Assembly (NCBI GenBank): GCA_022711335.1
Contig: JAKLFF010000001.1
Location: 195,016 to 259,015 of the forward strand
Source of the DNA: Patescibacteria group bacterium
Lineage (GTDB): Bacteria > Patescibacteriota > Minisyncoccia > Moranbacterales > UBA2206
Reading direction: 5' to 3'
DNA length: 64,000 nt
Of this stretch, positions 617 through 48,400 are shown in pieces. Under the pieces are notes generated by a model that worked only from the letters and a program-made list of their open reading frames with translations, did no database searches and was not told the origin of the DNA. Both the position numbers and the translations under genes were made by a program. Numbering within the stretch: position 1 is the first letter of the stretch; each line of letters opens with the position of its first letter.

Positions 617-1633
617 TTAAAATTGCCTAATAAACCTCAAATCCCCGCTATGAAAAAGCCTTACATCGTCAATCTTATATTTCATCATTGCCAAGCGTTC
701 AAGCCCGATTCCCCAAGCAAAGCCGGTGTATTTGTTTCTTGGATACCCGGCAGCCACGAAAACATTCTGATTGACCATTCCCGCTCCGCCAAGCTCCAGC
801 CAGCCATTGCCTTTGCAGGCACTACAACCTACGCCTGCGCACATGGTGCAGGAAATGTCATATTCAAATCCCGGCTCCACGAAGGGAAAATAACTTGGCC
901 TTAACCTAATTTTTATATCCTGATGGAAAAACTGTGAAAAAAACACTTCCGCAACGTGCTTTAGATTTCCGACATTTATATTATCTCCTACAACCAGCGC
1001 TTCGAACTGATGAAAAGTATGCTCATGAGTTGTATCGGTCGCTTCGTTTCTGAAACATCTTCCGGGCGCGATAATTTTGAAAGGCGGCTTGTTTTTTTGC
1101 ATATACCGCGCCTGAATCGCCGAAGTCTGCGACCGCATAGCAAGATCGCTGTTTTTCATGAAAAAAGTGTCTTGCATATCCCGCGCCGGATGGCTTTTGG
1201 GAATATTCAAAGAATCAAAATTATAGAATTCTGTTTCCACTTCCGGTCCATCGGCAATTTCAAACCCCATCGAGGTGAAAATATCTTCAATTTCCCTTCG
1301 AACGATTGAAATCGGGTTGAGATGCCCGATTCCGCTTTTCTTTCCAGGAATTGTCACATCAATTCTTTCTTTATTAAAATTCAAGTTTTCGTTTTTGACT
1401 TCCTGCCTTTTGCTTTTTATAATTTCCAAAATTTCTCCCTTGGTTTTATTGGCCAATTCTCCTATTTTTTTTCTTTCTTCCGGCGCCAAATCCTTGAGAT
1501 TTTTAAGGATAGACACGAATTCGCTTTTTCTTCCTAGAAACTTTTTCTCCAAATCAAAAAGTTCTCCATTATCCCTGACTTTGGAAATAGCTTTTAAAAT
1601 CTGATTCTTAATGTCGTTTATTTTTTGTTCCAT
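617..1633 (-). CDS. pheS: Phenylalanine--tRNA ligase alpha subunit
   Basis: 338 aa. Class II aaRS motifs are present: motif 2 GRCFRNEATDTTH and motif 3 GFAWGIGLERLAMM. The length and overall fold match PheS. Confidence 0.93.
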   Translation of the reverse strand: MEQKINDIKNQILKAISKVRDNGELFDLEKKFLGRKSEFVSILKNLKDLAPEERKKIGELANKTKGEILEIIKSKRQEVKNENLNFNKERIDVTIPGKKSGIGHLNPISIVRREIEDIFTSMGFEIADGPEVETEFYNFDSLNIPKSHPARDMQDTFFMKNSDLAMRSQTSAIQARYMQKNKPPFKIIAPGRCFRNEATDTTHEHTFHQFEALVVGDNINVGNLKHVAEVFFSQFFHQDIKIRLRPSYFPFVEPGFEYDISCTMCAGVGCSACKGNGWLELGGAGMVNQNVFVAAGYPRNKYTGFAWGIGLERLAMMKYKIDDVRLFHSGDLRFIRQF

Positions 1634-25303: not shown

Positions 25304-25340
25304 AGCCGAACCCTTCCGGGAGTTCGGCTCCAATTTTTTC
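25304..25340. terminator. GC-rich hairpin (AGCCGAACCC-TTCC-GGGAGTTCGGCT) flanked by T-runs on both strands
   Basis: Seen in the sequence. Lies at the right edge of the phage block. Confidence 0.5.
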
Positions 25341-34313: not shown

Positions 34314-35375
34314 CTATAAACCGCTATTTAACTCTGACCGTATGATACTTGCAACCTGCTTCATTATCCCATTTACCCCAACAGTCAACCTAATATATCT
34401 TGTTAGCGGATTTGGTGTTTCTTTGAATTCTATATTATTATTCTCAAAAGCTTTTAACATAGTGTCTCTTTTAGATCCAAAATTGATTAAAACAAAATTT
34501 CCGCCACCCTCGATCACATCAAATCCCATTTTTTTTAATTCTTTAGCAAATTTTTTTCTTGCGATTAGTATCTTATTTACTGAATTCTTCAAATATTTAC
34601 CGTCAGTACAAACAACCTCGACCGCTCTTGCCGCTAACGCAGTCACTTCTCTGAAAGGTTTAAATCTTCCTATCATTTTGGCTAATCCCTCATTGGTCAG
34701 TATATAACCAATTCTTAACCCCGCTAATCCGACATTCTTAGAAAAACTACGTATTATAATAACATTCGAAAATTCATCAACTAAAGGTGACGCGTCAATA
34801 CGCCCAAAATCAGCATATACTTCATCAATGACAACTAAAATATCTCTCTCTTCGGCTTTTCTGACGAATTCTCTTAGCCTATCAACAGAAAAAATATATC
34901 CTGTAGCACCATTGGGGTTAGCAATAAGTACTACTTTTACATCAGGTGAAATTAATTTAGCCAAGGTGTCATCTGAACAACTACCATCATCCTCACAATA
35001 AACTTCAATCAACTTACAATTTAATTCCTGTGAATGTATCTTATACATTTCAAATGTTGGAGCAATGGTTGCGATAACAGCGCCCGGATCACAAAATGTC
35101 TCTAGTATCATTTTCATTGCGCCATCCGCTCCATTTGACAATATCAAATTTTCGTTGGGCTGATTTAAAAACTGAGATAATGCATTATATGCCCTGCTTA
35201 CTTCAGGATAAGCACTAGCCATTTCTGCCGAAAAACCTTTTATTATTTTCCTAAATAAAGATTTTGGCATAGATGGTACATATTCATTCATTCCCAATCT
35301 GACTCTGTCGAGACGAGTGAGAAAATCCTGGTTGTTACGCACAATATCATTTACATGTTCTCTGCATTTAATCAT
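34314..35375 (-). CDS. Class I/II PLP-dependent aminotransferase (HisC/CobD-like)
   Basis: 353 aa. Motifs VIANPNGATG and SFSKNVGLAGLRIGY, the latter holding the PLP-lysine. Confidence 0.75.
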   Translation of the reverse strand: MIKCREHVNDIVRNNQDFLTRLDRVRLGMNEYVPSMPKSLFRKIIKGFSAEMASAYPEVSRAYNALSQFLNQPNENLILSNGADGAMKMILETFCDPGAVIATIAPTFEMYKIHSQELNCKLIEVYCEDDGSCSDDTLAKLISPDVKVVLIANPNGATGYIFSVDRLREFVRKAEERDILVVIDEVYADFGRIDASPLVDEFSNVIIIRSFSKNVGLAGLRIGYILTNEGLAKMIGRFKPFREVTALAARAVEVVCTDGKYLKNSVNKILIARKKFAKELKKMGFDVIEGGGNFVLINFGSKRDTMLKAFENNNIEFKETPNPLTRYIRLTVGVNGIMKQVASIIRSELNSGL

Positions 35376-35600: not shown

Positions 35601-37502
35601 ATGGGTATATTTAAAAAAGTCGAATTAAACCTAAATATTAAGCAGCAGGAAATATCCCCAAACGATATATTTTTTGTTATTGATAAAAATAAAAAAATAA
35701 CAACTTTTAGCATTAATAACATCTCCTTAAAATTGCCTGAATTACCGCTAGAAAGACCCTCTATAATAAAATCAGGAGTTGGATTTATTACTCTTGAAGA
35801 TCTTGAAATACATCCCATGAACTTGGCAAATAGATGGGATATTTTAAAAGATTTTCCTAATTATAAAACATCTGATCACCAAAAAAGATTTATTATTACT
35901 ATTGAAGAATCTGGAATGCTTGAAAGTTATGTCATTCCAAAATTTTTTGAAGAATCCGAGCCAATTGCCAAAATCGTCTTAAACAAAAATCAGTTACCCA
36001 TTCAATTTACTATTGAAATATCGGAAATAAAGAACGGGAAAATTCAATCAGTTAAACCTCAAAAACCAAAAGAATCCGCCAAGATTCTTATGGGTACTCA
36101 AATATTAGGACATGTTCAGGATGCGGCTAAGATTATACGATGGGCAGAAAAAAACGGAACATTGCAGAGTAAGTGGAAATTTGCCTTACCAGCGACAAAA
36201 AGAACTGAAGTTACTAAGAGCTCCTTAAAAAAAGAAGGTATAGACACGAAAAAAATAATTAGCGATTGGTCATATGCGGGAGGAAAAAATTTTAGAACAA
36301 ACCAGGAATACATAGGCGATTTTAGTAAAAAAGAATCGTTTTCAACTGTCGTAGCATTTATTGCTGCGAATGCCAGATTATGTATTGATGTTGCAAAAGG
36401 AAAATATGCTGTGGTATCGACAAATTTTCGATCAGAAGCGCGGATTATGAAAATAATAAATCCAAATATTATTACTATGGGAGTTTCCCACACGTTTTTG
36501 TCAGGAAAATTAGAAAAACGTATAGGTTTACACGATGATCTTCCAAGATTTGCAGCCATGCTTCGGGAGGTACAACAATCTCTTGATCTTGTGCCTAATC
36601 GAATTACCTCTTTAGGAGGAAACGTAAATTATATTGATTATTATTGGAAAGTTTGCGAAGAGAAAATACAAGTACTCGACATATTGCTTTATCGTACTTT
36701 GGATTTTGACACCACTATTCCTCCAGTATTCAATGGCATAACCCAAGTCATTCAGATTCCTCTAGCAATTCGCGACACAAAGATATCAAAAAATAAAGCC
36801 AGGGAAAATATCGCTTCAATAATAGGAAAAAAATTAAAGTCATCTGATAAAATAATCATCCTTTCTGGAGAAAGTGACGATGGATCATTTAAAAAAAGGA
36901 TTGAGAAAGTCATTTGTTTCGCGAAATCAAATCCGAATGTACATGTTGTTATGCCATTAGACCCTAACGATGAAAGAATTTCCGATATCGATATGCCTTC
37001 AAACGCATATACGATAGGGTTCAGGAGAGATTGGCGCGAAATTATTCCTGGAGGGGACATTACTTTTATACGAGGAAGTTGGGGCGAGTTAATTGACCTA
37101 ATATTTTCTGAAACGGTTCCAATAATAACTTCTCCAGGAACGGTACCGACAAATGCAGATTTAAGCACTACGCAATTTTTAACTGAAGTGTCAGAAGAGC
37201 GCGCTTGCAATGTGTCATTGTTTGTAAAAATATTACAATCATACGGCATAAAGACGGAAATGATAAATAGATTATTAGTTGATCTTAATAATCCGTCAAA
37301 TAAATACACCCTACAAAACGCGATAGAGTACGCATTACAATCTGACGTTGCGAATAAAATAAAAGAGGCTCTTTCGGCTATTCCAAAGGACAATATTGCG
37401 GGATGCATTGGAAAATTACATGAGCAATTGCTTGATCTTAAAAAACCTTTTTCAACCGAAAATCTTAAAAATTTGCATCAGAATATTTGGCACCGAAAAT
37501 AA
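35601..37502 (+). CDS. Large hypothetical protein (633 aa)
   Basis: Long + strand ORF in AT-rich DNA with no recognisable domain. It runs divergently from the rSAM/PheRS-like array. Confidence 0.6.
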   Translation: MGIFKKVELNLNIKQQEISPNDIFFVIDKNKKITTFSINNISLKLPELPLERPSIIKSGVGFITLEDLEIHPMNLANRWDILKDFPNYKTSDHQKRFIITIEESGMLESYVIPKFFEESEPIAKIVLNKNQLPIQFTIEISEIKNGKIQSVKPQKPKESAKILMGTQILGHVQDAAKIIRWAEKNGTLQSKWKFALPATKRTEVTKSSLKKEGIDTKKIISDWSYAGGKNFRTNQEYIGDFSKKESFSTVVAFIAANARLCIDVAKGKYAVVSTNFRSEARIMKIINPNIITMGVSHTFLSGKLEKRIGLHDDLPRFAAMLREVQQSLDLVPNRITSLGGNVNYIDYYWKVCEEKIQVLDILLYRTLDFDTTIPPVFNGITQVIQIPLAIRDTKISKNKARENIASIIGKKLKSSDKIIILSGESDDGSFKKRIEKVICFAKSNPNVHVVMPLDPNDERISDIDMPSNAYTIGFRRDWREIIPGGDITFIRGSWGELIDLIFSETVPIITSPGTVPTNADLSTTQFLTEVSEERACNVSLFVKILQSYGIKTEMINRLLVDLNNPSNKYTLQNAIEYALQSDVANKIKEALSAIPKDNIAGCIGKLHEQLLDLKKPFSTENLKNLHQNIWHRK

Positions 37503-37563
37503 ATAAAATAGCCCGACAAAGTTATTGGGCTATTTTAATAGAATTTATGTGGCTTTATTTAGT

Positions 37564-38520
37564 CTATTCGGGAACAGAGCAATGTCTGCAAATTTTAATT
37601 TTATTCGTTCCATTCAACATACTTTTTAATATTTTTTTCCTGTTTTCAGTATTCCACCAATTATTATCTCTTAATATATTGCCCAAATTAAAATCGGCAT
37701 TGTAGTCATGGAAGCACAGACCAATATCACCATTTGCATTAACGAGTAGATTTTCCCATGGCCACATACAATGGTTTATAGTGTAATTGTCTGAGATTTC
37801 TTTTGCTTTAGTTGTTTTATATCTGGTGTTTTTAGTACTTGTTGGCACAAACTTTAGATTGACTTTTCTATCTTCATATCCGCTCATATAAGCGTTAAAA
37901 GTTTTAAAGATAGTTTTGTCTACTCCTATATTTTTGCAAATATCCGAAAATTTATCCATTTCGTTTTCGTTATGCTTCATAACAATAAATTGGGCTACAA
38001 CAACGGGCTTTTTAGCTCTCATGTTTTTTTTAAGTTCTGTGAGATCTTTGATATTTTTTAACAAAACATTTAAATCGCCTCCTGAACGATATTTCTTGTA
38101 CGTTTCATTAGATGCTCCATCAATAGAGATGTTGATATAATCCAGACCTGATTTAATTAATTTTTTTGAAACTTCTTTATTTAATAACAACCCATTGGAG
38201 TGAAACCCGACTGTTTCTATTTTATTGTCCTTTGCAAATTTTACCATTTTAGCAATATCCGGATTCATCAATGGCTCTCCATAATTAAACAGTGCTATTT
38301 CTCGCACGCTATCGTTAATCAGCCTGATTATTTTTTTGAAATTATCATATGACATCAAGGTCTCATTTTTAATTTTTCCTCTCCCCATGGGACACGAGAA
38401 ACATCTCAAGTTGCAAAAACGACTAACCTCTATCCTAGCTCTTATCGGCATCGGAATATTGTTAGCATCAAATTTTGATGGCATATTCTTCTTATTGTTA
38501 CTAAATGTAATTTTTCTCAT
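37564..38520 (-). CDS. Radical SAM protein with C-terminal SPASM/twitch-like Cys cluster
   Basis: 318 aa. CNLRCFSC matches the CxxxCxxC radical SAM cluster. The C-terminal cysteines in CMWPWEN...CFHDYN...CRHC fit an auxiliary cluster. Confidence 0.75.
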   Translation of the reverse strand: MRKITFSNNKKNMPSKFDANNIPMPIRARIEVSRFCNLRCFSCPMGRGKIKNETLMSYDNFKKIIRLINDSVREIALFNYGEPLMNPDIAKMVKFAKDNKIETVGFHSNGLLLNKEVSKKLIKSGLDYINISIDGASNETYKKYRSGGDLNVLLKNIKDLTELKKNMRAKKPVVVAQFIVMKHNENEMDKFSDICKNIGVDKTIFKTFNAYMSGYEDRKVNLKFVPTSTKNTRYKTTKAKEISDNYTINHCMWPWENLLVNANGDIGLCFHDYNADFNLGNILRDNNWWNTENRKKILKSMLNGTNKIKICRHCSVPE

Positions 38521-38533
38521 ACTTCACTGATTA

Positions 38534-40150
38534 CTATTTTAATGGATGGGCATGTTCCGACTCCAAATCAACATTTGCATTTTTAAAATCAAACCGTGAA
38601 TCAATTTCTTTTTTCAGTTTTACCAAAAATTTTACGAACTTGGAATTTGATTCCGTACTGGAATAGGGAGACATTATATAAGCCTTCAGCGAATATAAAG
38701 GATAGGGATTGGCGCCTGTAGAATTGCTGGGCATTTCATCCAAGTAATAAGGATTTCCCAATTCAGAAATTTTCTTTAGAAAAAATGTTGTATAGTTGTT
38801 TCTAACATTCGCCTCTTCTTCATAGCTAGTGAAAGAAATATTTTGGGGTATGCGAGGCACAAACATAACACAAACGCCCAAACCATTTGAATTGATAATT
38901 TCAAAACTATCCGTTTCTTGCAACTTATTTTGCAAATCAACCGCTACCTCAGTCAGATATGCAACCAAACATTGAAATCCTGTTACTCCAAGAACATTCA
39001 ATGCGACATAGGCCGAATTCGGTCCGTCTCCCGGTCTGGAATTTTCAATAGAATATTTAAATGGCCATCTCCAAAAATCACTGTTTTTATACAAAGATTT
39101 TTTATCTTTTACCATAAAAGCACATGACATATATGGACAAAAACCCATCTTGTGAAAATCTATGCCAAACGAATCAGCCTGATAGAGATCTTTCAAATAT
39201 TTTATTATTTCTGATATCCTTTCCCGCGCTACTGGTTCGATTTTTAAAGGATTCAACTGAAAATCATAATCTTTGAAAAATATCCACGGAAATGCGACAA
39301 CAGCATCCACATGCACATGAGGTGTATAATTTAGATCAAGCTCTTTAACTAATCTGTCTCTTAACGCAACAACTTCTCTAATAGGATCAACAACCATATT
39401 GTTGGTTGATCCTCCTGAGATAATAATAGCGGCAATCTTCTTTCCCTCTTTGCTTTTTTCTCTAATAACTCTTTCCATTTCTACTAGATCAACTCTGCTA
39501 TCCTTGCCAGTTTTTATTTTAAACATGTTGTTTATCCCGATGCCAAGCCAATCAACATCTTGTTTGTGCGCAGGATGTCCTGATGCAGTTGAAAGAACTA
39601 TAACGTCTTCTTTTACGCCTTTCTCCGAAGATTCCGGGGAACAATTTTTTAAGCCTAACTTTATTCCATACATTATTGTTGCTTTTCCTCCCCAAGTAAA
39701 AGCTCCTCCGGCTTCTTGCCAATTCCAGCCGATATATTCAGCAATGGATTTTATAACCTTTTGTTCGATTATTAGGCTATCCCCGCAAGCAGTATCAAGA
39801 CAAAGATTGGGATTGTACAGGGCCGTAAATGTCTTAGCGGCAACAGTAGGCATAACGGGAGAAGCAACGACGTTATACATCGAATTTGGTGAATGCCATC
39901 TGCAAACACCCTGAAATAACTCAGCTATAAGCGCTGAATGTTGCCCTTTTGAGATGCCTTCGCTCGGGATCCTAAAATTCTGAATAGCTGATTCGGCATA
40001 CTCGGCTTTTGAAGACAAAGTGCATTTTGATAAATCAGTAATTTTCAATATTTCATCATGCGTATTTCTAATGTCTTGAAGCAAAGAAGAAATCGAATCC
40101 GTCTCAGGATTATAAAACAAATCTCTTATTTTTTTAGACAATTTAACCAT
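38534..40150 (-). CDS. PLP-dependent group II decarboxylase
   Basis: 538 aa. DFHKMGFCPY matches the PLP-lysine motif (S/D-x-HK) of group II amino-acid decarboxylases. Confidence 0.65.
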   Translation of the reverse strand: MVKLSKKIRDLFYNPETDSISSLLQDIRNTHDEILKITDLSKCTLSSKAEYAESAIQNFRIPSEGISKGQHSALIAELFQGVCRWHSPNSMYNVVASPVMPTVAAKTFTALYNPNLCLDTACGDSLIIEQKVIKSIAEYIGWNWQEAGGAFTWGGKATIMYGIKLGLKNCSPESSEKGVKEDVIVLSTASGHPAHKQDVDWLGIGINNMFKIKTGKDSRVDLVEMERVIREKSKEGKKIAAIIISGGSTNNMVVDPIREVVALRDRLVKELDLNYTPHVHVDAVVAFPWIFFKDYDFQLNPLKIEPVARERISEIIKYLKDLYQADSFGIDFHKMGFCPYMSCAFMVKDKKSLYKNSDFWRWPFKYSIENSRPGDGPNSAYVALNVLGVTGFQCLVAYLTEVAVDLQNKLQETDSFEIINSNGLGVCVMFVPRIPQNISFTSYEEEANVRNNYTTFFLKKISELGNPYYLDEMPSNSTGANPYPLYSLKAYIMSPYSSTESNSKFVKFLVKLKKEIDSRFDFKNANVDLESEHAHPLK

Positions 40151-40188
40151 AAGGTTTTCGAGAGTTTAAAAACTTGGTAAATCTTCAA

Positions 40189-41349
40189 TTATCTTAACGT
40201 GACTCCTAAATCTTTTTCTGTCATTTTGCGAATTTCCTCTTGAATTTTATTTATCTCTTCATTAGTCAAAGTTCTTTCCATTGAACGATAAATTATGCGA
40301 AATGTGTAACTTTTTTTGCCTTCACCAAATTTTTCTTCATTTTCATATTCATCCAATAATTTAACCTCTTCAATCAGATCATTCGAATAGTCTCTAACAA
40401 TTTCATAATAATTGTTAAGACTTATGTTTTTGTCAATGATAAACGAAATGTCTCTCATTGTAGCTGGGAATTTGCTGACCTCTTCAAACTTACTATTTAT
40501 ATCTCGAAACTGACTGGTAATCCTCGGGTCATTCGACCATAAAACTCTGATGTCGCCAATATCCATCTTTATCATTGCCAATCTTTCTCCAAAACCGAAA
40601 GCCCAGCCGTTGTAAACTTCCGGATCCAAACCGAAATTTCTCAAAACGATCGGGTTTACTAATCCAGCTCCATTTACCTCCATCCAATCCCCGTTAAATT
40701 TAATGTCCATTTCAAGACTCTGTACCGTATAGGGAAATGTGTCTTCAATGAATTTATACTCTATATCTGAACCGAAAATACCCTTAGCCAAATCGACTTG
40801 TACGCTCTTTAGATCGTTTTGTGTTATAACTTTTTTTTCTTTTTTGCAAATTAGTAACCCATCAATTTGATGGAAAGCTGGATAATGGCTTCTGTCAATT
40901 TCGTCCTTTCTAAAAACGATACCAGGCGCCAGAGCCTTTATTTCCCCCTCACGCTCTAATCTTTTTAGAACTTCTGGGTCTTTCAGATAAAAAGACCAGA
41001 AAGCCGTCATTTGAGTTCGCAAGATATGATCCTTATCTAAGTAGTAAGTATCTGTTTCATTTCTGGAGGGATGATCCTTCGGTGCATTCAATAAATCAAA
41101 ACACTGTTCAACGGTAACTACTCGAGGAAATTCTACAATATCGAAATCTTTAAATGTCGACAGATTGATTATCTGATCGAATAAAATTTTTACAGGCGAG
41201 TTTTCTTTTTTAGAAAGATCCGGCAGTGCTAAAAATCTTTTTATACGCTCTGCTTTTGTATCATTTCTTTTATTCAATCCGTCAATCAATGTTTTTTCAT
41301 TTTTGTTCTCTATTATAATTTTTCTCATATTTGATTTGCTAAGTTTCAC
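40189..41349 (-). CDS. Monomeric-type phenylalanyl-tRNA synthetase paralog: PheS-like catalytic core fused to a PheT-like C-terminal FDX-ACB anticodon-binding domain
   Basis: 386 aa. It aligns by eye to the window's own pheS across motif 1, motif 2 (FRKDEIDRSHYPAFHQ versus FRNEATDTTHEHTFHQ) and motif 3 (GWAFGFGERLAMI versus GFAWGIGLERLAMM). The C-terminal segment FPATMRDISFIIDKNI...EGKKSYTFRIIYRSMERTLTNEEINKIQEEI matches the PheT FDX-ACB consensus (FPAVxRDLAFVVD...GKKSLAFRLTFRS.ERTLTDEEV). Confidence 0.75.
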   Translation of the reverse strand: MKLSKSNMRKIIIENKNEKTLIDGLNKRNDTKAERIKRFLALPDLSKKENSPVKILFDQIINLSTFKDFDIVEFPRVVTVEQCFDLLNAPKDHPSRNETDTYYLDKDHILRTQMTAFWSFYLKDPEVLKRLEREGEIKALAPGIVFRKDEIDRSHYPAFHQIDGLLICKKEKKVITQNDLKSVQVDLAKGIFGSDIEYKFIEDTFPYTVQSLEMDIKFNGDWMEVNGAGLVNPIVLRNFGLDPEVYNGWAFGFGERLAMIKMDIGDIRVLWSNDPRITSQFRDINSKFEEVSKFPATMRDISFIIDKNISLNNYYEIVRDYSNDLIEEVKLLDEYENEEKFGEGKKSYTFRIIYRSMERTLTNEEINKIQEEIRKMTEKDLGVTLR

Positions 41350-41458
41350 CCTGTGGCATTAACTTAATATCTTATTATTTCATAAATATTACCTTTTAAA
41401 ATGGTTTTTGTCAAAATTTGTGTAATAAATTTGAAATCATAAAATTAGAATGATTTTG

Positions 41459-42316
41459 TCATCCCAAGTCTCTCATATCGGGCTCGCCTTCTATAAATTC
41501 TGATTCAAGGCCAATATTTTCAAAATACTCCGTCATTTTTATACAAGCAAATTTTTCGGTCGAGTAATGCGTTCCGCCAATCATGTTTATTTTATTTTCC
41601 TTGGCAATTTTGTGAGCTTCAATCGACGGCTCATAATTATTATGGAATGTCACGCCGGTCAGAAACGTATTGATACCAAGCCGCGCGATTTCGGAAAGTA
41701 TTTCATTATCACATCCTCCGCCAGCCACCATCGCTACTTTGCCGTCTTTTATTTCTGACTCACCGTAGTTCCATATTTTAACCTCGTGACCGACAGCATT
41801 CTTGAATACCTCCACTAATTCGGAAATATTTTTACAATCCGTTTTACCGATCACGCCACTTAAAAATCCGAAATATTCAGCGAACTCGTCCATCTGATCC
41901 AGACCAAGCGCTTTTGCAAAATTAACCGACGTGGAATATTCTCCGTTCCTATCAAGCGGAGTGTGCATGGTATAAATTGAGATCTTGTTTTCTTTGAATT
42001 TTTGGAGTAAATCACCGTTCAGATTCACAAACGGCGATTGGCTCTTCTTAATCTTCCAATCTACTGGATGATGCGTAAAAAGCAGAATATTTTGTTCTCT
42101 CTTTTCTAAAAGTTCCTGCATAATTTTCTCGCTCGGAAAAACAGCTGTGTAGGTCTTAGTGATTTCATCCGTATTATCCGCCAGAATTCCCATATACCTT
42201 CTCCTGAAATTTTCCGTAACAAATTTCGGGTCAAATTCAACATTGCTCCAATCGTCTTGGCATTTTTCGAGTTCAAAGTCAGTTTCTAATTTTTGATATA
42301 AGTCCTTAGCATTCAT
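41459..42316 (-). CDS. NIF3-family dinuclear metal-centre protein (YqfO-like)
   Basis: 285 aa. The metal-ligand motifs LLFTHHP...YTMHTPLD fit NIF3. Confidence 0.65.
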   Translation of the reverse strand: MNAKDLYQKLETDFELEKCQDDWSNVEFDPKFVTENFRRRYMGILADNTDEITKTYTAVFPSEKIMQELLEKREQNILLFTHHPVDWKIKKSQSPFVNLNGDLLQKFKENKISIYTMHTPLDRNGEYSTSVNFAKALGLDQMDEFAEYFGFLSGVIGKTDCKNISELVEVFKNAVGHEVKIWNYGESEIKDGKVAMVAGGGCDNEILSEIARLGINTFLTGVTFHNNYEPSIEAHKIAKENKINMIGGTHYSTEKFACIKMTEYFENIGLESEFIEGEPDMRDLG

Positions 42317-42320
42317 AAAA

Positions 42321-43118
42321 TTAAATTAACTTGTATATTTTTTCGGCATTGACTGAAAATATTTTTTCTTCAATCTCTTTTTCTAAACTTAACGACTTTA
42401 CCAGTTCGATATGATCTTCAATCTTACACATCGGCCAATCAGTACCAAAAAGAATTTTGTCCGGCCGGTCGGCGATAGTCTTTTTCAGTATTTCTCTTAT
42501 CTTTTCAATTCCTCCGCTTTTTCCGATCACTTCCTCATCCGCCAAGGCCGCTATTTCAAAGTAAATATTTGGAACATCTTTCGTAATTTCATAGCAATAT
42601 TCAAGCTTTGGCCAATAATAATGAGTAATAATAACTTTTAGTTTCGGATATCTCCTGGCTACTTCAATAATATATTTCGGATCATTCCACTTGGCGCATT
42701 CGCTATCGCCTGAGTTTTCTCCTGTATGAAACAAAACTGGAACATCTAATTTTTCACATAGCTCGTAATACGGCAAACATCTTTCATCGGTTGGATAATA
42801 CGGATCATGACCTGGAAAAAATTTAAGTCCTTTGATTTTTTTATCTTCCAAAAGTCGTTTGTATTTTTCCGCCTCACCCGATCTTCTTTGGATGATTTGC
42901 GGGCTGCCGAGCAAAAACAGATTTTCACGTTTACCGATCAAATCAATGACTTTATCCAGATCGGCAATTTGATCACTTCCCTCAACATTGTCCGGAATAA
43001 TAATGGCCGCGTCTATATTATTTTTTTTCATTTCATCCAAATATAATCTAAAAGCCTCTTCAAGAGAGGCCGCGTTTTTACCATATTTGGAAATGTGAAC
43101 ATGGGAATCAATAACCAT
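42321..43118 (-). CDS. Metal-dependent amidohydrolase (TIM-barrel, Amidohydro_2-like)
   Basis: 265 aa. Starts MVIDSHVHI; a later HTGE...D pattern is present. Confidence 0.6.
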   Translation of the reverse strand: MVIDSHVHISKYGKNAASLEEAFRLYLDEMKKNNIDAAIIIPDNVEGSDQIADLDKVIDLIGKRENLFLLGSPQIIQRRSGEAEKYKRLLEDKKIKGLKFFPGHDPYYPTDERCLPYYELCEKLDVPVLFHTGENSGDSECAKWNDPKYIIEVARRYPKLKVIITHYYWPKLEYCYEITKDVPNIYFEIAALADEEVIGKSGGIEKIREILKKTIADRPDKILFGTDWPMCKIEDHIELVKSLSLEKEIEEKIFSVNAEKIYKLI

Positions 43119-43136
43119 ATATTCTCAGCATACTTT

Positions 43137-43520
43137 TTATTTCCTATTCTCCAAGAACTTTTTTATCCTGTCTGCCATTTCTTGGGGAATTGTTTCTGAC
43201 TTGATAATATAATCGGCAGCGCCAAGTTTTTCCGCCCTATCCTTATACTCTTTCTTGTCTGTATTAGTGAAAACAAAAACTGGAATATCCTTGGTGCTTG
43301 GATCTTTTTTCAACTTCTCCATTATATCCAATCCGTTCTCGTGCCAAAGTATTATGTCTAAAAGAACGATATCCGGTCTATCCAGAGAAACCATTTTCAA
43401 AGCATCGGCAATATTGGTAGCCGGTATTGTAAGAAGACCCTTTACATTGAAAACCTGTTGAAAAAGAAATAGTTGCTCTGGATCGTCTTCAACAAGTAAA
43501 ACTTTTATTATATCAGACAT
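43137..43520 (-). CDS. Single-domain response regulator (CheY-like receiver)
   Basis: 127 aa. VLLVEDDPEQ...D(54)IIL carries the phospho-acceptor Asp; a later K is present. Confidence 0.8.
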   Translation of the reverse strand: MSDIIKVLLVEDDPEQLFLFQQVFNVKGLLTIPATNIADALKMVSLDRPDIVLLDIILWHENGLDIMEKLKKDPSTKDIPVFVFTNTDKKEYKDRAEKLGAADYIIKSETIPQEMADRIKKFLENRK

Positions 43521-43542
43521 ATTTTTTTCTTTTTTCTAATGA

Positions 43543-45339
43543 TTACATTTTTATGTCTGCCCTTTTTTTGATATATTCCTTTATATCCACCTTGTTCTTA
43601 GGTTTGATTGGCAGCTTCACAAAAAATTCCGCTCCTTTGCCAAGTTCGCTTTCTACCCAAACTTTTCCACCGTGTCCCTCCACAATTTCCTTGATAATGA
43701 ATAATCCCAACCCTGTTCCGTCAGTATACATATCTACAGCATTTTGAGCACGGGCAAATTTTTTGAACAAATTTGGAATTTCTTCAGCTGGAATTCCAAT
43801 TCCATTGTCTTTAACCGAGAAAATGACATCGTCACCATCCCTGCGATTTCCAATAATTATTGTTGCCTTGCCATCCCGCTTATCGCGGACATCAGGCGTT
43901 TGTTTCGGTGAAGGCGTGTATTTGATAGCATTGGTCAGTAAATTGGAAAACGCCTCTTCCAGATATTTCCTTTGCCCAAAAACTTCCGGTACGCTTGCAT
44001 CCAAATCGCCTATCGACAAATCAATCTCCCTTTCCAGTGTTTCCGCCTTGAACCCGTCAATCATTTTTTCAAAAAATTCTTTGACATCTATCTTTTCTAT
44101 TTCCTTGTCCATAACATTGAATTTCTTGTTGGTCAGAGAAGTGGCATTCAAAATATCATTAATAATATCTTCCAGTTTTTGACACTTTGACCTGGCGCCA
44201 TCATAAAACTTCTTCTTTTGTTCTCCGTTAAACGAATCCATTGTTCCGTCCTGAAGCATTGAAATTGTCCCTTTGATGACAGTAATAGGAGTTCTTAATT
44301 GATGCGAAGCAATATTGATAAATTCATTTTTGGCCTGATCGGCTTTTTTTAATTCGACATTGGCAACCTCCAACTGATCATTCTGGCTGGATATTTTTGC
44401 ATTTGCAATTTTTAATTCTTCTTTTTGCTTAATTTCAGCCTTTACGGATTTTACCAACCACCAACCAAATGTTGATACGATTGCCAATGTTACGGCCGTA
44501 AGAATCCTGTTGGTAGAGTCTTGAATAAATGCAAACTGAGAAGCAATAAGTATAATAGTTCCTATTACCAATGCTTGAGCAGCAAAAAGTTTTATATGAA
44601 ACGCTCTATATCGAACAATCAAATACGCCAATAATCCGATAAATATATCCATGCCGAACAGACCGTAATATTCAAGTCGCGAATCGGACAATATACCCAA
44701 GTCGGTAAGATATGCCGCTAGAAATGTTACCATAAAGAAAGAAAAGAGAAATAATTCCATTCCCAATCCCATGAGCCATATCTGTTTCTTAAAATCAACT
44801 TCTGATTTTCGATATTTGCGAATGAGCAGAACGAGTATCCAAGTCATTGCTAATATTCCGAAAAAGACGCGGGAGAACTGAAACAAGGGTCCTTCAAACA
44901 TAAACGCATCGCAATTTGTTATATTAAACCCACTTAAATTTATACTGGTCGGGGATAAAACAATGATAGGAACTGTGAGTATTAAAAAAATACTTTTAAG
45001 CAGAGTAGATACGTCTTTCTTTTCCAGAAAAACGTAAATAAAATATATGCTGAGAATAGATATGAGAGTGGATAATACCCGAAGAAAAGACCACACAAAC
45101 AACATAAGATCGCTATAAATATTTGTCCATAAAATAAGATTTGAAATTACCCAAAGAGAAAAGCATACAGAAATAGCAAATAATAATTTATTTATCAGAA
45201 ATTGTTTACCTTTCCAAAAAACAAAAAAACCAACCAGGAGTGCAATTATGGCTGTTGGTATATGCGAATAATACAGAAGTGCTGGCACATCCGAAGAAAA
45301 TAAAAAATATAGAGGTTTTGAGAATGAATAGCAGATCAT
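43543..45339 (-). CDS. Membrane sensor histidine kinase
   Basis: 598 aa. Seven or eight N-terminal TM helices, a HisKA box (IASHQLRTPIT) and a HATPase_c region (DNGIGIP, GTGLGL). Confidence 0.85.
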   Translation of the reverse strand: MICYSFSKPLYFLFSSDVPALLYYSHIPTAIIALLVGFFVFWKGKQFLINKLLFAISVCFSLWVISNLILWTNIYSDLMLFVWSFLRVLSTLISILSIYFIYVFLEKKDVSTLLKSIFLILTVPIIVLSPTSINLSGFNITNCDAFMFEGPLFQFSRVFFGILAMTWILVLLIRKYRKSEVDFKKQIWLMGLGMELFLFSFFMVTFLAAYLTDLGILSDSRLEYYGLFGMDIFIGLLAYLIVRYRAFHIKLFAAQALVIGTIILIASQFAFIQDSTNRILTAVTLAIVSTFGWWLVKSVKAEIKQKEELKIANAKISSQNDQLEVANVELKKADQAKNEFINIASHQLRTPITVIKGTISMLQDGTMDSFNGEQKKKFYDGARSKCQKLEDIINDILNATSLTNKKFNVMDKEIEKIDVKEFFEKMIDGFKAETLEREIDLSIGDLDASVPEVFGQRKYLEEAFSNLLTNAIKYTPSPKQTPDVRDKRDGKATIIIGNRRDGDDVIFSVKDNGIGIPAEEIPNLFKKFARAQNAVDMYTDGTGLGLFIIKEIVEGHGGKVWVESELGKGAEFFVKLPIKPKNKVDIKEYIKKRADIKM

Positions 45340-45773
45340 AAGTTGTCGTTATTTATTTCATTATTTTGTGGAGATTCTTCTTCGGTACTGTCTTTGTTGT
45401 TTTGAATATCGACCTCTGTTGCACAAGCATCACCGTCAACTTCGGGATCGCAATATGTTTTGGAACAATCGTGATCTCCCAGAAGGCACGAACTAGCTGC
45501 CTCGCAATCAGTTATATCCTCACCACATTCTTTGTATAAATCGGGTGAATATTTTACCATTTTTGAGTAATAGTATTTTTCGGTGCAAGCATCATCGCTA
45601 CAACCCGCAAAACATTTATTTCCATTTACAGCAAGATCACAGGCTCCTTCATATCCAACCAAGTAGTCTTGTTTGGTCATAAAACGATAATAAGAAAAAA
45701 CACCAGCCATAAAGACAAGTGCTACAAGTATGTAGAGAAAGGAGTGATTGTGAATTTTTTGTTTTATATCCAT
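45336..45773 (-). CDS. Cys-rich exported/membrane-anchored protein
   Basis: 145 aa with one TM, then a CxxC-rich acidic domain. Confidence 0.45.
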   Translation of the reverse strand: MDIKQKIHNHSFLYILVALVFMAGVFSYYRFMTKQDYLVGYEGACDLAVNGNKCFAGCSDDACTEKYYYSKMVKYSPDLYKECGEDITDCEAASSCLLGDHDCSKTYCDPEVDGDACATEVDIQNNKDSTEEESPQNNEINNDNL

Positions 45774-45846
45774 AGTCGTTTGCTACATTAATATTATACA
45801 CAAATAATGTTGCTTACGCAATAAGAAGACAAGAGTCCTTCTGTAT

Positions 45847-46806
45847 TTACTTTTTGACAACGTCTTTCGTGTAGTTCTTAAAATCATTCTCCTGGGCATC
45901 ATTAAGCGAAACCGTATACCTTTTGAGAAAATCAACCGGGCGATAACCTAATTTTGTTTCCCTTAAATTTTTGATATTTAAGTCTTGTTGCCAATTCCAC
46001 AATTTAATATCAAGAGTTGTCAGATATCGGGCTAATTCCCTATTAAAAAATTCGTATATACCGCTAAAAGAATTATCGGCTTTGATAAAGTGAGATACCG
46101 CATTTCGATTGGGCAATGTTTCATCGATACCAAAGCAAAGCATTGTGCCATGCAAAAAAACGCAGGATAAAATCAGCTCATGGCTTTTGGCATTTTCCAA
46201 TAAACGACGGAGTGCTTTTTCCTCAAATCTTAGATCGCATGTTTTATTTTGCAATTTTTTTCGACACTCCCATTGTCGCAATGTAAGATAAATTTTGCTT
46301 TGTATCGATAAATCGCTCGGATCTTTTAATCGAAAAACTGCATCGGGATATTCTTTTGAAAATTTTTTAGCAAGACGCCTAAGATCTTTAAACTTAGCGC
46401 CTTGGAGTTCGGATAACTTAGACGGAGAAAATAAGTAATCAAAATTATTGCGATCCTCTTCCACAAGCAAATTTGCAGATTGCAAATGCTTGATTGATTC
46501 TTCCGTTATGAAACGAAGTTTGGGACATATTTTTGAATTGCAAGCAAAAGTCAAAAGCGTGAATGCGGTACTTTCACATTTATTAGTGCCCAAAAAAGAA
46601 AGAAATGGCTCTTTTGTTTCATAGTCCGTAAAACGAATAACCAAATTTCCATTCAGTTTCGCTATTTCACGATCAGCTCTTATATCCCACGCCCATAGAT
46701 TAGTAAAATTAAAAGCCGAATACGGTGGAAATTTTGAAACAAATCTTTCGATCTCTTTTTTGTCCGACAGCTCAAGTTTTTTGAAATTCGGGAATTCAGG
46801 TATCAT
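45847..46806 (-). CDS. Putative aminoacyl-tRNA-dependent transferase (DUF2156/MprF C-terminal LPG-synthase-like)
   Basis: 319 aa. The assignment is by pattern recall only: an N-terminal ...SAFNFTNLWAWD... segment, a domain of about 300 aa and a GNAT-like layout. No search was run. Confidence 0.4.
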   Translation of the reverse strand: MIPEFPNFKKLELSDKKEIERFVSKFPPYSAFNFTNLWAWDIRADREIAKLNGNLVIRFTDYETKEPFLSFLGTNKCESTAFTLLTFACNSKICPKLRFITEESIKHLQSANLLVEEDRNNFDYLFSPSKLSELQGAKFKDLRRLAKKFSKEYPDAVFRLKDPSDLSIQSKIYLTLRQWECRKKLQNKTCDLRFEEKALRRLLENAKSHELILSCVFLHGTMLCFGIDETLPNRNAVSHFIKADNSFSGIYEFFNRELARYLTTLDIKLWNWQQDLNIKNLRETKLGYRPVDFLKRYTVSLNDAQENDFKNYTKDVVKK

Positions 46807-46828
46807 ATTTCAATATGTCGAATTAATT

Positions 46829-47749
46829 TTATTTATAAAAAAGTAGAAGATAGGTGCCGGTTCCTGTTATGCCAATTGCGATGATTTTCTGCCAAACATG
46901 TTTCAGTTCCATTTTCTCAACTACTATCATCGGAAAGAAAACGGTCAGTATCGCGCCAATAATGAAAACGAAAATTGGCTGAAATGATTCCGCAAGCAAT
47001 ACAAGCCCAACTGGGGCGAGAAGATACGCGTAAGCAACGGACACGTCTCCCAATATGTATATAAACTCATTGAAAACATTTAGTGATAAAATATTTTTAG
47101 AGTTATTTTTTAACGCCAATATGAAATTTTCACGATAAGAGCGCATAAAAATAAATATACCGATACCCGTCAATAAGAGCATGGAGTGTCCCCAGAACAA
47201 CGACCTCCAGAGATTTTCTTCAAGTGCTACCGCTTTAAAAATAGTTCCGCCCGATGCCCAAAAAAAAGAAGCCGCCAGCATCGGTATGACAGTACTTTTT
47301 CGAAGTTTGAAATGATTATCCGAATCTATTTCAAAAGCGATGATTGTCGTACCGAAAATAATGATCGCCATGGAAATTAACTGCATGTGAGTTAAAACTT
47401 CCCCAAGCAAAAGATAACCCAATATAGCTCCGAACACAGGAACAAGCTGGTAAAATACTATCACTATGGAGGTTTCTTCGTTCTTAAGGGCTATCAAATA
47501 ACACCACAGCACCCCCACGCTCAACATGCCTCTGACTGCAAGAATAAGAATATTTGTAAAACTAACATCCAGCACTGTTCTGTCCATGAAAAAGAAAAAA
47601 GGTAATGCAAATACGGAAATCAAAGAAGAGAAAAGCAAGATAGTGCCGATCCCGCTCTTTTTAAAATATCTCTCCAAGAGAATTTTATCTATATAATTTG
47701 TCAGAGCATACAAAAACGGCCCGATAAGGGCGATAAAAAACCAGGTCAT
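46829..47749 (-). CDS. EamA/DMT-family transporter
   Basis: 306 aa. About 10 TM helices in two EamA-like halves. Confidence 0.75.
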   Translation of the reverse strand: MTWFFIALIGPFLYALTNYIDKILLERYFKKSGIGTILLFSSLISVFALPFFFFMDRTVLDVSFTNILILAVRGMLSVGVLWCYLIALKNEETSIVIVFYQLVPVFGAILGYLLLGEVLTHMQLISMAIIIFGTTIIAFEIDSDNHFKLRKSTVIPMLAASFFWASGGTIFKAVALEENLWRSLFWGHSMLLLTGIGIFIFMRSYRENFILALKNNSKNILSLNVFNEFIYILGDVSVAYAYLLAPVGLVLLAESFQPIFVFIIGAILTVFFPMIVVEKMELKHVWQKIIAIGITGTGTYLLLFYK

Positions 47750-47974
47750 ATAATTTCTACATATCTAGTAAACTTTAAAATTTCCAATATTTCTTTTTTA
47801 TCCATGTTTTCAATTGTTTATTGCTGATTAAAATATATCACATCCTAGGGCTTTTTCAAGCCTTCAACATCGGATGTAAAATTTTGGTCAAGAAAAAGTA
47901 TACTAGGCCCAAATGGCGCCACAAAAAAAAGAGACTACTGAGTCTCAATAGCCTCCGAGATAAAATGCATGATT

Positions 47975-48322
47975 TTATAATCCCTTAATTCTTTTTTTTC
48001 TTGGTTTCAGCAAAATATTGCAGTGATCATGAACATACATCAAATCACTGATAATTCCTTTTAATGTTTTGTCATGTCTTTTCTGCCATCCCTTTATAGA
48101 AATGTCCTCTCTGATCAGGTTTAAGATTGTTGCCATTTGAGCATGTAACTCATTGTTCTGAATATTAAATTCCAATTGTTTCTTGCGTTGATTATCCACG
48201 TCTTTATGATTTTTTAAATGCAAAAAAGGTCTCCCGTCGGCGGCACCCTTGCGGGCACCCAACACCCTTTCGAGCATTGACCCATGTGAACAGATACCGA
48301 TCAGAAGACCGTTTTTGTTCAC
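47975..48322 (-). CDS. Hypothetical protein
   Basis: 115-aa ORF. Its 5' end overlaps a long hairpin (48281-48327). Confidence 0.3.
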   Translation of the reverse strand: MNKNGLLIGICSHGSMLERVLGARKGAADGRPFLHLKNHKDVDNQRKKQLEFNIQNNELHAQMATILNLIREDISIKGWQKRHDKTLKGIISDLMYVHDHCNILLKPRKKRIKGL

Positions 48323-48400
48323 ATGGGAATTTCATATATTGCGCCATGCCTATGCCCGAAAGCATAAGTTTAGGCAATGTTGTAAATATATTCTATCGTT

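Follow-up and report, generated by a model that had tools for sequence, protein, structure and literature searches.

Among the described systems closest to the locus treated here, LysX combines a dedicated aminoacyl-tRNA synthetase (aaRS) with a GNAT-type transferase, in valanimycin biosynthesis the partners of the transferase VlmA are VlmL, a SerRS, and VlmD, a decarboxylase, and in the mycothiol and bacillithiol pathways the GT-B enzymes MshA and BshA are found, MshC being an aaRS-paralog ligase. VlmA itself is an aminoacyl-tRNA (aa-tRNA) transferase using Ser-tRNA (PMC6103681, PMC12945691), ErdS is a fusion of AspRS with DUF2156 and hence again a dedicated aaRS with a GNAT-type transferase (PMC9437257), while in the tyramine cluster tyrS-tdcA-tyrP of enterococci and lactobacilli an aaRS-like gene lies beside a decarboxylase gene (PMC3315439). 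The subject of the present analysis is a run of ten minus-strand genes (37564-47749) in a 64-kb window (that is, the whole stretch of DNA that was analysed) of a metagenome-assembled genome of Candidatus Moranbacteria, a member of the Patescibacteria or candidate phyla radiation (CPR); in a preliminary description these genes, which include a DUF2156 protein, a phenylalanyl-tRNA synthetase (PheRS)-like paralog, a decarboxylase and a radical SAM/SPASM enzyme, had been proposed as one candidate aa-tRNA-dependent system. Comparison with homologous loci indicates that the ten genes are probably a juxtaposition, made up of two separately conserved modules about 2 kb apart and of three genes between them; one speculative ten-gene cluster is replaced, on good comparative evidence, by two separate, testable and undescribed modules, on neither of which a paper was found in the literature searched. 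They are best described as akin to known kinds, module 1 to MprF and module 2 to tyrosine decarboxylase (TDC) clusters and to pathways with aaRS-paralog ligases. The preliminary description had considered its wider combination of enzymes undescribed; in principle there is precedent, the pairing of a dedicated aaRS with a GNAT-type aa-tRNA transferase being known from ErdS, LysX and valanimycin VlmA.

The ten genes, followed by the two genes beside them that also enter module 2, are given below with the Pfam or other evidence for each.

46829..47749, minus strand: EamA/DMT (drug/metabolite transporter)-family transporter with 10 transmembrane (TM) segments, 306 aa, module 1 (Pfam EamA, 57 bits)
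45847..46806, minus strand: stand-alone soluble DUF2156 protein, tandem-GNAT, aa-tRNA-transferase-like, 319 aa, module 1 (LPG_synthase_C, 72.5 bits)
45336..45773, minus strand: Cys-rich, N-terminally membrane-anchored small protein, 145 aa, module 1 (no family match)
43543..45339, minus strand: sensor histidine kinase with an N-terminal multi-TM (7TM-like) region, module 1 (HisKA and HATPase_c, weak HisKA_7TM)
43137..43520, minus strand: REC-only response regulator, 127 aa (Response_reg, 70.6 bits, without output domain)
42321..43118, minus strand: Amidohydro_2 metal-dependent hydrolase (Pfam, 106 bits)
41459..42316, minus strand: NIF3/DUF34 protein (Pfam DUF34_NIF3, 104.5 bits)
40189..41349, minus strand: monomeric mitochondrial-type PheRS paralog, module 2 (tRNA-synt_2d, 181 bits, and FDX-ACB, 92 bits)
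38534..40150, minus strand: divergent group II pyridoxal phosphate (PLP)-dependent decarboxylase-like protein, 538 aa, module 2 (Pyridoxal_deC, 48.2 bits)
37564..38520, minus strand: radical SAM/SPASM enzyme, 318 aa, module 2 (Radical_SAM, 79 bits, and SPASM, 36 bits)
35601..37502, plus strand: orphan 633-aa protein, predicted GT-B fold and N-terminal beta-rich domain, module 2 (structure model)
34314..35375, minus strand: HisC-like class I/II aminotransferase, 353 aa, variable member of module 2 (Aminotran_1_2, 138 bits)

The domain calls were scored against the Pfam curated cut-offs and, in addition, against NCBIfam models; all nine calls of the preliminary description hold above the Pfam cut-offs, and the ten open reading frames (ORFs) were verified at their coordinates, together with the short spacers and the single 4-bp overlap reported for them (22, 73, -4, 22, 18, 4, 109, 38 and 13 bp along the ten genes). 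The arrangement is nevertheless unremarkable in its surroundings, because in the whole window the minus strand holds 41 of the 49 ORFs of at least 100 aa and the spacer is 110 bp or less in 24 of the 34 same-strand neighbour pairs, with a median of 60 bp; co-directionality and tight packing of the ten genes are the background of this genome and not above chance here.

The gene-neighbourhood comparison that the preliminary description had proposed as a check on itself was carried out on three samples: 43 loci orthologous to the PheRS-family gene, with 10-kb flanks, from one-genome-per-species Patescibacteria (45-83% identity), 80 metagenomic loci anchored on DUF2156 (32-88% identity), and 12 loci anchored on the decarboxylase. 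By tblastn with all window proteins, none of the 43 PheRS loci had any of the other nine genes, or any of the flanking genes, in the 10 kb on either side of the ortholog. The 80 DUF2156 loci contained no amidohydrolase, NIF3, decarboxylase, radical SAM, 633-aa protein or aminotransferase gene, and in none of them did a monomeric-type PheRS gene lie beside DUF2156; conversely, the DUF2156, EamA and Cys-rich genes were found in none of the 12 decarboxylase loci. No homolog of Amidohydro_2 and none of NIF3 turned up anywhere in the 43 + 80 + 12 loci, and both genes are linked to neither module; with the response regulator they are the three intervening genes. The DUF2156 gene and the PheRS/decarboxylase/radical SAM set never co-occur outside this genome (0/43, 0/80 and 0/12 loci), which is the outcome named beforehand as speaking against a single system, and the ten-gene system was discarded on neighbourhood conservation. 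The link central to it, a DUF2156 transferase fed by the PheRS paralog, finds no support, the two genes never being neighbours in the comparison loci; the idea of a private PheRS acting with the decarboxylase and the radical SAM enzyme survives as regards a conserved unit and fails as regards a partnership of these genes with DUF2156.

It is instructive to consider how a single pathway of the valanimycin/LysX/ErdS type would have operated: the PheRS would charge tRNA, the DUF2156 enzyme would add Phe to the amine produced by the decarboxylase, the radical SAM enzyme would tailor the product, EamA would export it, and the two-component pair would provide control. All of the enzyme classes needed lie within 10 kb, every characterised protein among the closest structural relatives of the DUF2156 model is an aa-tRNA transferase, and VlmA with Ser-tRNA (PMC6103681, PMC12945691) and the AspRS-DUF2156 fusion ErdS (PMC9437257) are precedents; moreover, genes of the SrmL family ("PheS-related mystery ligase") occur near DUF2156 in 3 of the 80 loci, and a kinase or an S-adenosylmethionine (AdoMet) decarboxylase lies near the decarboxylase in comparison loci L129 and L133. 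The likeness of the ten-gene set to those systems is that it too unites an aaRS paralog with a transferase of the tandem-GNAT kind and with an amine-forming decarboxylase; the difference is that the transferase on one side and the aaRS and decarboxylase on the other are neither fused nor co-conserved, being neighbours in this genome only. Since, in addition, each half is conserved alone and with different partners, the amidohydrolase and NIF3 genes recur in no comparison locus, and co-directionality with short spacers belongs to the genome background, a single pathway for all ten genes is very improbable.

Several observations weigh against a clean separation of the two modules, or limit how far the comparison reaches. 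In L129/130 a homolog of the window kinase, response regulators and a spermidine synthase gene lie upstream of the PheST/decarboxylase genes, and in L133 an AdoMet decarboxylase, a 192-aa membrane protein and a kinase are encoded at a distance of 3-6 kb from the decarboxylase, so that a looser, larger-scale link between the modules, of the kind of an amine-metabolism neighbourhood, is possible. SrmL genes lie within 10 kb of DUF2156, at a distance of 0.8-7 kb, in the three loci mentioned (L061 2263-3498, L121 2037-3152 and L085 2-463); the full-length proteins of L061 and L121 score 374 and 401 bits against the SrmL model, the L085 fragment being assigned by similarity only, and the three cases are slightly above a chance expectation of about 1, estimated from 640 kb of flanks on the assumption that a genome measures about 1 Mb and has one or two copies of SrmL. 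The loci are not phylogenetically independent, some being near-duplicates (L051/52, L093-95, L127/128, L129/130); the decarboxylase evidence comes from just 11 distinct contexts; the contigs of the closest relatives end before the inter-module genes, which limits the view of the exact ten-gene order; and it is from family, fold and neighbourhood that the substrates, the tRNA dependence and the regulation of both modules are inferred. A scan for promoters and terminators adds little to the delimitation of the modules: 59 promoter sites were counted against 53.7 +/- 8.8 in shuffled sequence and terminators were mildly more frequent than in shuffles. Even so, the cross-module hints fall far short of the tight co-conservation inside each module. 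The scan was dropped as evidence on operon boundaries, the promoter counts lying within the shuffles and the terminators barely above them; the one site placed at the upstream edge of module 1, where a promoter-like site (47859-47832) follows it, is weakly supported in view of these near-shuffle counts.

47930..47956, minus strand: terminator-like hairpin, 12 pairs and a T-run, upstream of EamA (motif scan; weak evidence)

Module 1 (43543-47749) is centred on the DUF2156 protein, whose assignment by hidden Markov model (HMM) search was borne out by an LPG_synthase_C/DUF2156 match well over the cut-off of 27.5 bits (E-value 4e-20, profile positions 10-297 of 298); no NCBIfam model matched it. 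The MprF-type character attributed to it is right as to Pfam family and fold, and not as to subfamily, since the protein falls in a stand-alone, 2HQY-like group rather than in MprF proper. Indeed, a profile built from its family and compared with PDB sequences found only 2HQY (E-value 3.5e-35) and no MprF chain at E-values up to 1, positions 8-302 of the profile aligning with residues 4-296 of 2HQY, i.e., end to end over a single domain of about 300 aa. The 120 best homologs are 185-377 aa long, nearly all about 300-330 aa. The AlphaFold 2 model (pLDDT 90.8) is an alpha/beta structure, globular throughout, for which the top Foldseek match is again 2HQY (TM-scores 0.79 and 0.84, 26% identity), followed, at TM-scores of 0.5-0.63 and 10-14% identity, by MprF C-domains (E-value about 1e-11, TM-score about 0.6), FemX and the peptide synthases Sbb17/Sba18, which depend on aa-tRNA; for the MprF and FemX structures the identity is 10-13%. 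Acyl-CoA GNATs rank below the aa-tRNA-dependent transferases in the list. By modelled fold and Pfam family the protein is therefore placed as an MprF-like tandem GNAT in a soluble, uncharacterised subfamily, for which the use of aa-tRNA is a reasonable analogy. 2HQY, whose structure was solved in 2006, is likewise a stand-alone DUF2156 protein, from Bacteroides thetaiotaomicron and of unknown function. No relevant literature was found on DUF2156 in CPR bacteria.

Comparison with MprF is instructive in both directions. The window protein passes the LPG_synthase_C cut-off and shares the tandem-GNAT fold of the MprF C-domains, and a transporter gene adjoins it, recalling the synthase-plus-flippase logic of MprF; with a DMT transporter as its partner, DUF2156 may be one half of a split arrangement of synthase and translocator. 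On the other hand, the window protein is soluble and of 319 aa, without the fused N-terminal membrane domain (flippase/anchor); the transporter is of the DMT/EamA family and not an MprF flippase domain; by sequence the protein is not nearest to aminoacyl-phosphatidylglycerol synthases, its profile finding 2HQY alone; and its fixed companions are a histidine kinase, a small accessory protein and, often, AdoMet decarboxylase.

The families found around DUF2156 were obtained by clustering all ORFs within five genes of it in the 80 loci, most of which are on short contigs, and are distributed as follows.

Histidine kinase: 40 of the 80 loci
EamA: 30 of the 80 loci
Unrelated 275-aa polytopic membrane protein: 26 of the 80 loci
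93-aa soluble protein: 21 of the 80 loci
Cys-rich protein: 20 of the 80 loci
AdoMet decarboxylase (PF02675): 20 of the 80 loci
192-aa membrane protein: 11 of the 80 loci
Response regulator, within 5 genes: 7 of the 80 loci
Pyruvoyl arginine decarboxylase: 4 of the 80 loci

When only loci with full flanks are considered (3 kb or more upstream of DUF2156 and 4 kb or more downstream of it; 15 loci), EamA or the 275-aa protein is present in 14, the kinase in 13 and the Cys-rich or the 93-aa protein in 13, with a polyamine-pathway decarboxylase in 7. The set occurs in two variants. The type seen in the window consists of EamA, DUF2156, the Cys-rich protein and a kinase of 545-598 aa with a multi-TM N-terminus, and the second one of DUF2156, the 275-aa membrane protein, the 93-aa protein and a kinase of 445-488 aa without the 7TM region (L076, L079, L090, L093, L104, L107, L111 and others). 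Neither the 275-aa nor the 93-aa protein has a Pfam match, and HMM searches in which the former was considered as a detached 7TM domain of the kinase or as a divergent EamA gave no match either. The position of EamA relative to DUF2156 varies (before, after or divergent), as does the side on which the kinase lies, and adjacency is kept through these changes of order and orientation down to 33-35% DUF2156 identity. Because the set stays together through rearrangement while the genes directly outside it differ already at 70-88% DUF2156 identity, the pattern points to selection for proximity, beyond inherited order alone.

As to the sensory part of the module, HisKA and HATPase_c domains with the H-box 'SHQLRTP' in the kinase and a receiver whose Asp lies in 'VLLDI' identify a two-component pair; the response regulator, which lacks a DNA-binding output domain, is the probable partner of the kinase in this genome and probably belongs with module 1. 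The Cys-rich protein, for which no Pfam or NCBIfam match was obtained, begins with a TM helix, after which come about 9 conserved Cys and an acidic tail; wherever its family was seen (20 loci) the gene is directly upstream of the kinase gene, which it overlaps by 4 bp in the window and to which it is presumably coupled in translation, and it is read as an extracytoplasmic accessory of the sensor kinase. AdoMet decarboxylase (PF02675) is encoded directly upstream of DUF2156 and on the same strand in L057, L063, L075, L076, L099, L104, L107 and others (20 of the 80 loci), and an AdoMet or pyruvoyl arginine decarboxylase gene is a neighbour also in L103, L109 and L111. These associations hint at a polyamine connection of the DUF2156 family and, because the AdoMet and arginine decarboxylase genes so often adjoin it, an amine or polyamine acceptor appears, by analogy, as plausible as a lipid for the predicted transferase; beside module 1 of the window itself neither decarboxylase is present. 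Module 1 as a whole may be envisaged as a split, MprF-like unit of envelope modification, in which the kinase and its Cys-rich partner would sense an extracytoplasmic cue, the DUF2156 enzyme would move an aminoacyl group, by analogy from aa-tRNA, onto a membrane or amine acceptor, and the transporter would then move the aminoacylated product. This widely conserved module could throw light on envelope remodelling or sensing in lipid-auxotrophic epibionts, and would give a function to the stand-alone DUF2156 subfamily represented by 2HQY.

The PheRS-like gene of module 2 is a second gene of its family in this genome, as the preliminary description had supposed: a canonical pheS and the first 204 residues of pheT are encoded within the same window, and because the same reduced genome carries canonical pheST the monomeric enzyme is a true paralog.

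617..1633, minus strand: canonical pheS, alpha subunit (TIGR00468, 324 bits, cut-off 237)
1..612, minus strand: canonical pheT, beta subunit, N-terminal 204 aa, cut by the window edge (TIGR00472, 218 bits, profile positions 1-192)

The monomeric enzyme, which in the databases starts 7 codons later (379 aa) and bears the NCBI label 'hypothetical protein', is composed of a PheS core and an FDX-ACB domain; class II motifs 2 and 3 are intact when it is aligned with human mitochondrial PheRS. Over these 379 aa it is identical to an NCBI protein of a Candidatus Moranbacteria metagenome-assembled genome, and the ENA contig ERZ795055 NODE_304 matches the segment. Its best PDB match is indeed human mitochondrial PheRS (E-value 1e-56, against 1e-39 for bacterial PheS), and it narrowly misses the pheS_mito model (TIGR00469; 243.7 bits, cut-off 258.35). 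The monomeric architecture of alpha-core and FDX-ACB is the one seen in the human enzyme (3CMQ, 8P8X); unlike the latter, the window paralog is bacterial and coexists with canonical pheST of the (alpha-beta)2 type. SrmL has a similar plan, with a PheS core and an FDX-ACB-like C-terminus, and true SrmLs adjoin the decarboxylase family of module 2 (at 52-62% decarboxylase identity); the window paralog, however, belongs to a family of its own, much more conserved and nearest to mitochondrial PheRS. Membership in SrmL was accordingly rejected, the paralog scoring 241.2 bits against the SrmL model (NF051887, cut-off 300) at 31-35% identity to members, while true members from L061, L121 and L131-133 score 371-401 bits. 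No relevant literature was found on SrmL or on monomeric bacterial PheRS.

Orthologs of the monomeric PheRS are 45-87% identical across Paceibacteria, all 120 clusters among the matches listed being at least 77% identical to the window protein. In the loci of the PheRS-anchored sample (L002-L044) the gene usually follows those for TyrRS and for a TapR-like free-standing tRNA-binding domain and precedes that for ValRS or GyrB, and because its neighbours elsewhere are of this kind the context argues for a role in or near translation, independent of module 2; the enzyme may, that is, act in translation. A role as sole housekeeping PheRS had been suspected from the 77-87% conservation and the TyrRS/ValRS neighbours, and is refuted for this genome by the canonical pheS/pheT at 1-1633. 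Bacterial relatives that have the mitochondrial PheRS architecture and occur beside canonical PheST bear on the origin of monomeric PheRS, and module 2 would provide the first genomic context for SrmL as well as for this conserved mitochondrial-type paralog in bacteria.

Module 2 (34314-41349) comprises a quartet of genes, for the PheRS-family protein, the decarboxylase, the radical SAM/SPASM enzyme and the 633-aa protein, to which the HisC-like aminotransferase may or may not be added. Homologs of the decarboxylase and of the PheRS-like protein possibly share a contig in eight cases, confirmed in three (L126, L128, L138), and the quartet is found in three gene orders, given below with the identity of the decarboxylase to that of the window.

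L126, 81%: window order, i.e., monomeric PheRS, decarboxylase, radical SAM/SPASM, divergent 630-aa gene, aminotransferase
L127/128, 65%: decarboxylase, 620-626-aa gene on the opposite strand, radical SAM/SPASM, monomeric PheRS
L138, 62%: as L127/128, without the AsnB-like insertion
L129/130, 81%: PheS-PheT ending 5 bp before the decarboxylase, radical SAM/SPASM, 636-aa gene, aminotransferase

In L127/128 the insertion is an AsnB-like gene in place of the aminotransferase, and TyrRS and HisRS genes follow; in L129/130 canonical PheS-PheT take the place of the monomeric PheRS. More distant decarboxylases (52-62% identity) are adjoined in L131, L132 (two copies) and L133 by true SrmL genes (371-389 bits), and in L134 by a gene for a 399-aa PheS-like protein which is 69-76% identical to the SrmLs of L131-L133 (assigned by similarity only). 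In archaea-like loci, probably from DPANN (L136 is labelled Woesearchaeota), the gene adjoining that of the decarboxylase is TyrRS-like in L135 and of the radical SAM/SPASM type in L136, and in L137 the decarboxylase gene is a few genes away from two TyrRS-like genes. Overall, a PheS-family gene is next to or near the decarboxylase in 8 of the 11 distinct contexts, and the three PheS subfamilies involved (monomeric PheRS, PheST and SrmL) are only 26-35% identical to one another, so that the common denominator of module 2 is, judging from these families, phenylalanine activation. Further genes in L131-L134 code for APH-like kinases, HisC-like and class IV aminotransferases, GFO/IDH/MocA oxidoreductases and an inositol-phosphatase-like protein; decarboxylase neighbours in L131-L134 and L137 also include a 2-hydroxyacid dehydrogenase, a carbamoyltransferase and a ROK kinase, an enzyme set that recalls aminocyclitol or sugar-amine biosynthesis.

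A sceptical explanation for the conservation of both modules is that neither is a functional unit and that adjacency is merely gene order inherited within related Paceibacteria. All comparison loci come from one superphylum, several are near-identical copies, and the dense packing of CPR genomes makes conserved adjacency cheap. Inheritance of this kind is nonetheless decidedly improbable, given that adjacency outlasts inversions, order swaps and the substitution of partners (EamA by the 275-aa protein in module 1; monomeric PheRS, PheST and SrmL for one another in module 2), that it is kept to 33-36% identity and, for the radical SAM gene with the decarboxylase gene, as far as DPANN archaea, and that the genes directly outside the modules differ even between loci at 70-88% identity.

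Among the other proteins of module 2, the decarboxylase is identified as group II by the Pyridoxal_deC match (cut-off 27) and by a PLP-lysine motif, 'DFHKM', which aligns with 'NPHKM' of GADL1. Its PDB matches are about equally weak for GADL1, for tyrosine decarboxylase (TyrDC; 5HSI, 7CWX) and for diaminobutyrate decarboxylase (DABA-DC), so that no substrate can be assigned, and its best NCBIfam match is the Enterococcus-type tyrosine decarboxylase (TIGR03811), with just 63 bits. The radical SAM enzyme carries the CX3CX2C motif (C36-x3-C40-x2-C43) and a C-terminal SPASM domain, and has homologs of 60-68% identity in L126, L127/128, L129/130 and L138; in L126 a 52-aa 'gene' probably represents the 5' part of a radical SAM gene that has been split, because 52 + 267 aa roughly equals the 318 aa of the window protein. 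No NCBIfam equivalog, the peptide-maturase models included, matched the enzyme, and no conserved small precursor ORF was found beside it, the 20-100-aa matches across loci being shadows inside large genes; a role in the maturation of a ribosomally synthesised and post-translationally modified peptide was discarded on these grounds. The 633-aa protein has no Pfam, NCBIfam or PDB sequence match, even when its family profile is used, and lies by these searches outside the CAZy/Pfam glycosyltransferase families; annotation by sequence having failed, the structure model alone is informative, and its two Rossmann-like domains lead to a predicted GT-B-fold, glycosyltransferase-like protein, whose structural matches include BshA and MshA. 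The aminotransferase scores 212 bits against TIGR01141 (hisC), under the cut-off of 276.55, and is kept at 72-78% identity in L126 and L129/130.

The neighbourhood of an aaRS-like gene and a decarboxylase gene suggests a different interpretation of module 2, namely a biogenic-amine locus of the TDC or histidine decarboxylase (HDC) type, where Phe or Tyr would be turned into the amine in the service of pH or energy homeostasis and in which the aaRS-like gene would be a sensor or regulator, or a co-regulated housekeeping gene, rather than a biosynthetic partner. The tyramine cluster is a real precedent, tyrS being there the neighbour of the gene for tyrosine decarboxylase and reacting both to tyrosine and to pH (PMC3315439); the NCBIfam match just mentioned and the PDB matches 5HSI and 7CWX are to tyrosine decarboxylases, and archaeal homologs of the window decarboxylase occur beside TyrRS-like genes (L135, L137). 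What module 2 has in common with TDC clusters is that the immediate neighbour of its group II PLP decarboxylase gene resembles an aaRS gene for an aromatic amino acid. It differs from them in having no antiporter (indeed, in all 11 contexts the decarboxylase lacks a neighbouring permease or amino acid/amine antiporter), in a decarboxylase only distantly related, for which GADL1, DABA-DC and TyrDC matches are equally weak and no substrate can be deduced, and in the addition of a radical SAM/SPASM enzyme, a GT-B-fold protein and an aminotransferase; the partners, which elsewhere include APH-like kinases and GFO/IDH/MocA proteins, are of biosynthetic types. A homeostatic amine locus is hence rather unlikely. 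Because a PLP decarboxylase is combined with a glycosyltransferase-fold protein, a radical SAM enzyme and an aminotransferase or amidotransferase, the enzyme set looks biosynthetic rather than like an acid-resistance decarboxylation locus.

In this respect the mycothiol and bacillithiol pathways offer a comparison, in that they too join a GT-B glycosyltransferase to an amino-acid ligase of an aaRS family in the making of a small molecule; there is, however, no sequence relationship, the ligase of module 2 is of the PheS and not of the CysRS family, and no deacetylase is conserved with the module. Module 2 would be a phenylalanine-centred small-molecule cassette, in which the PheRS-family enzyme might supply activated Phe (Phe-AMP or Phe-tRNA), or match the Phe supply to the pathway, and the remaining enzymes would decarboxylate, glycosylate and tailor the product.

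The distribution of the module may also reflect lateral transfer. The module 2 proteins of the window share 65-81% identity with those of L129 (decarboxylase 81%, aminotransferase 78%), against 40% for canonical PheS, a comparison that possibly involves non-orthologous copies; these values are compatible with exchange of the cassette. Genes for an integrase or transposase flank module 2 in the window (32974-33918, minus strand), in L129 (18140-19057, and likewise in L130) and in L133 (15809-16847). It has therefore to be considered whether module 2 is a mobile cassette for a Phe analogue or a PheRS-directed antimetabolite, the PheRS-family gene being the immunity copy of the producer, for which immunity synthetases of the mupirocin (IleRS) and indolmycin (TrpRS) clusters are parallels. 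Such a role would suit the association of three PheS subfamilies with one decarboxylase family, the contrast between 81% and 78% identity for cassette proteins and 40% for canonical PheS, the flanking integrase or transposase genes and the retention of canonical pheST in the window genome. The monomeric PheRS, however, is present in 43 species with no cassette nearby and in a context of translation genes, so that it is not primarily an immunity gene; no product is known, and the PheS comparison carries the reservation already made. An antimetabolite cassette is, on balance, quite improbable.

Returning to the preferred reading of two separate modules, a more specific proposal covers both: module 2 would be a laterally exchanged cassette, found in ultra-small bacteria and archaea, that always travels with its own PheS-family enzyme and makes a glycosylated, Phe-derived amine or amide, while module 1 would be a split MprF analogue with a dedicated kinase. 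In this proposal, which taken in all its parts is rather doubtful, activated Phe (Phe-tRNA or Phe-AMP) would be the building block for the PLP, radical SAM/SPASM and GT-B enzymes, and for the product a role at the surface or in signalling is conceivable, or else one as a PheRS-directed antimetabolite with the synthetase as immunity. If it were true, SrmL would gain its first functional context and a split MprF analogue would exist in organisms unable to make their own lipids; the interest of the locus would be higher if either the Phe-activation link or the split-MprF idea proved correct. The Patescibacteria account for a large share of bacterial diversity, and most of their conserved genes have no known function.

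Some other features of the window may be mentioned. A LOOT RNA (Rfam RF03000; 69.5 bits, gathering score 46.4) is found at 48242-48376 on the minus strand, about 490 nt upstream of EamA and separated from it by the strong terminator-like hairpin at 47956-47930; because it overlaps the 5' part of a 115-aa ORF (47975-48322), the latter is probably not a real gene. A cis-regulatory RNA (T-box or riboswitch) in front of either module was considered and set aside, since Rfam finds the LOOT RNA alone and this is missing from nine other module-1 loci; tRNA genes were not found in the window either. Just upstream of the LOOT RNA, on the minus strand, lie the genes for a 252-aa protein with no significant family match (48401-49159) and for a 901-aa superfamily 1 helicase (49228-51933), with Viral_helicase1, AAA_30 and UvrD_C_2 matches in its C-terminal half and an unannotated N-terminal region of about 480 aa. 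Elsewhere in the window, a prophage-like element occupies 6250-25419, with genes for an integrase (6250-7497), an LPD38 large polyvalent protein (8883-12593), an Amidase_2 lysin-like protein (17177-19051), an SU10-type major capsid protein (20333-21511) and a P22-like portal (23419-25419); its guanine-plus-cytosine (GC) content is 45-51%, compared to about 34% in the rest of the window, and an integrated phage about 15 GC points above its CPR host is unusual.

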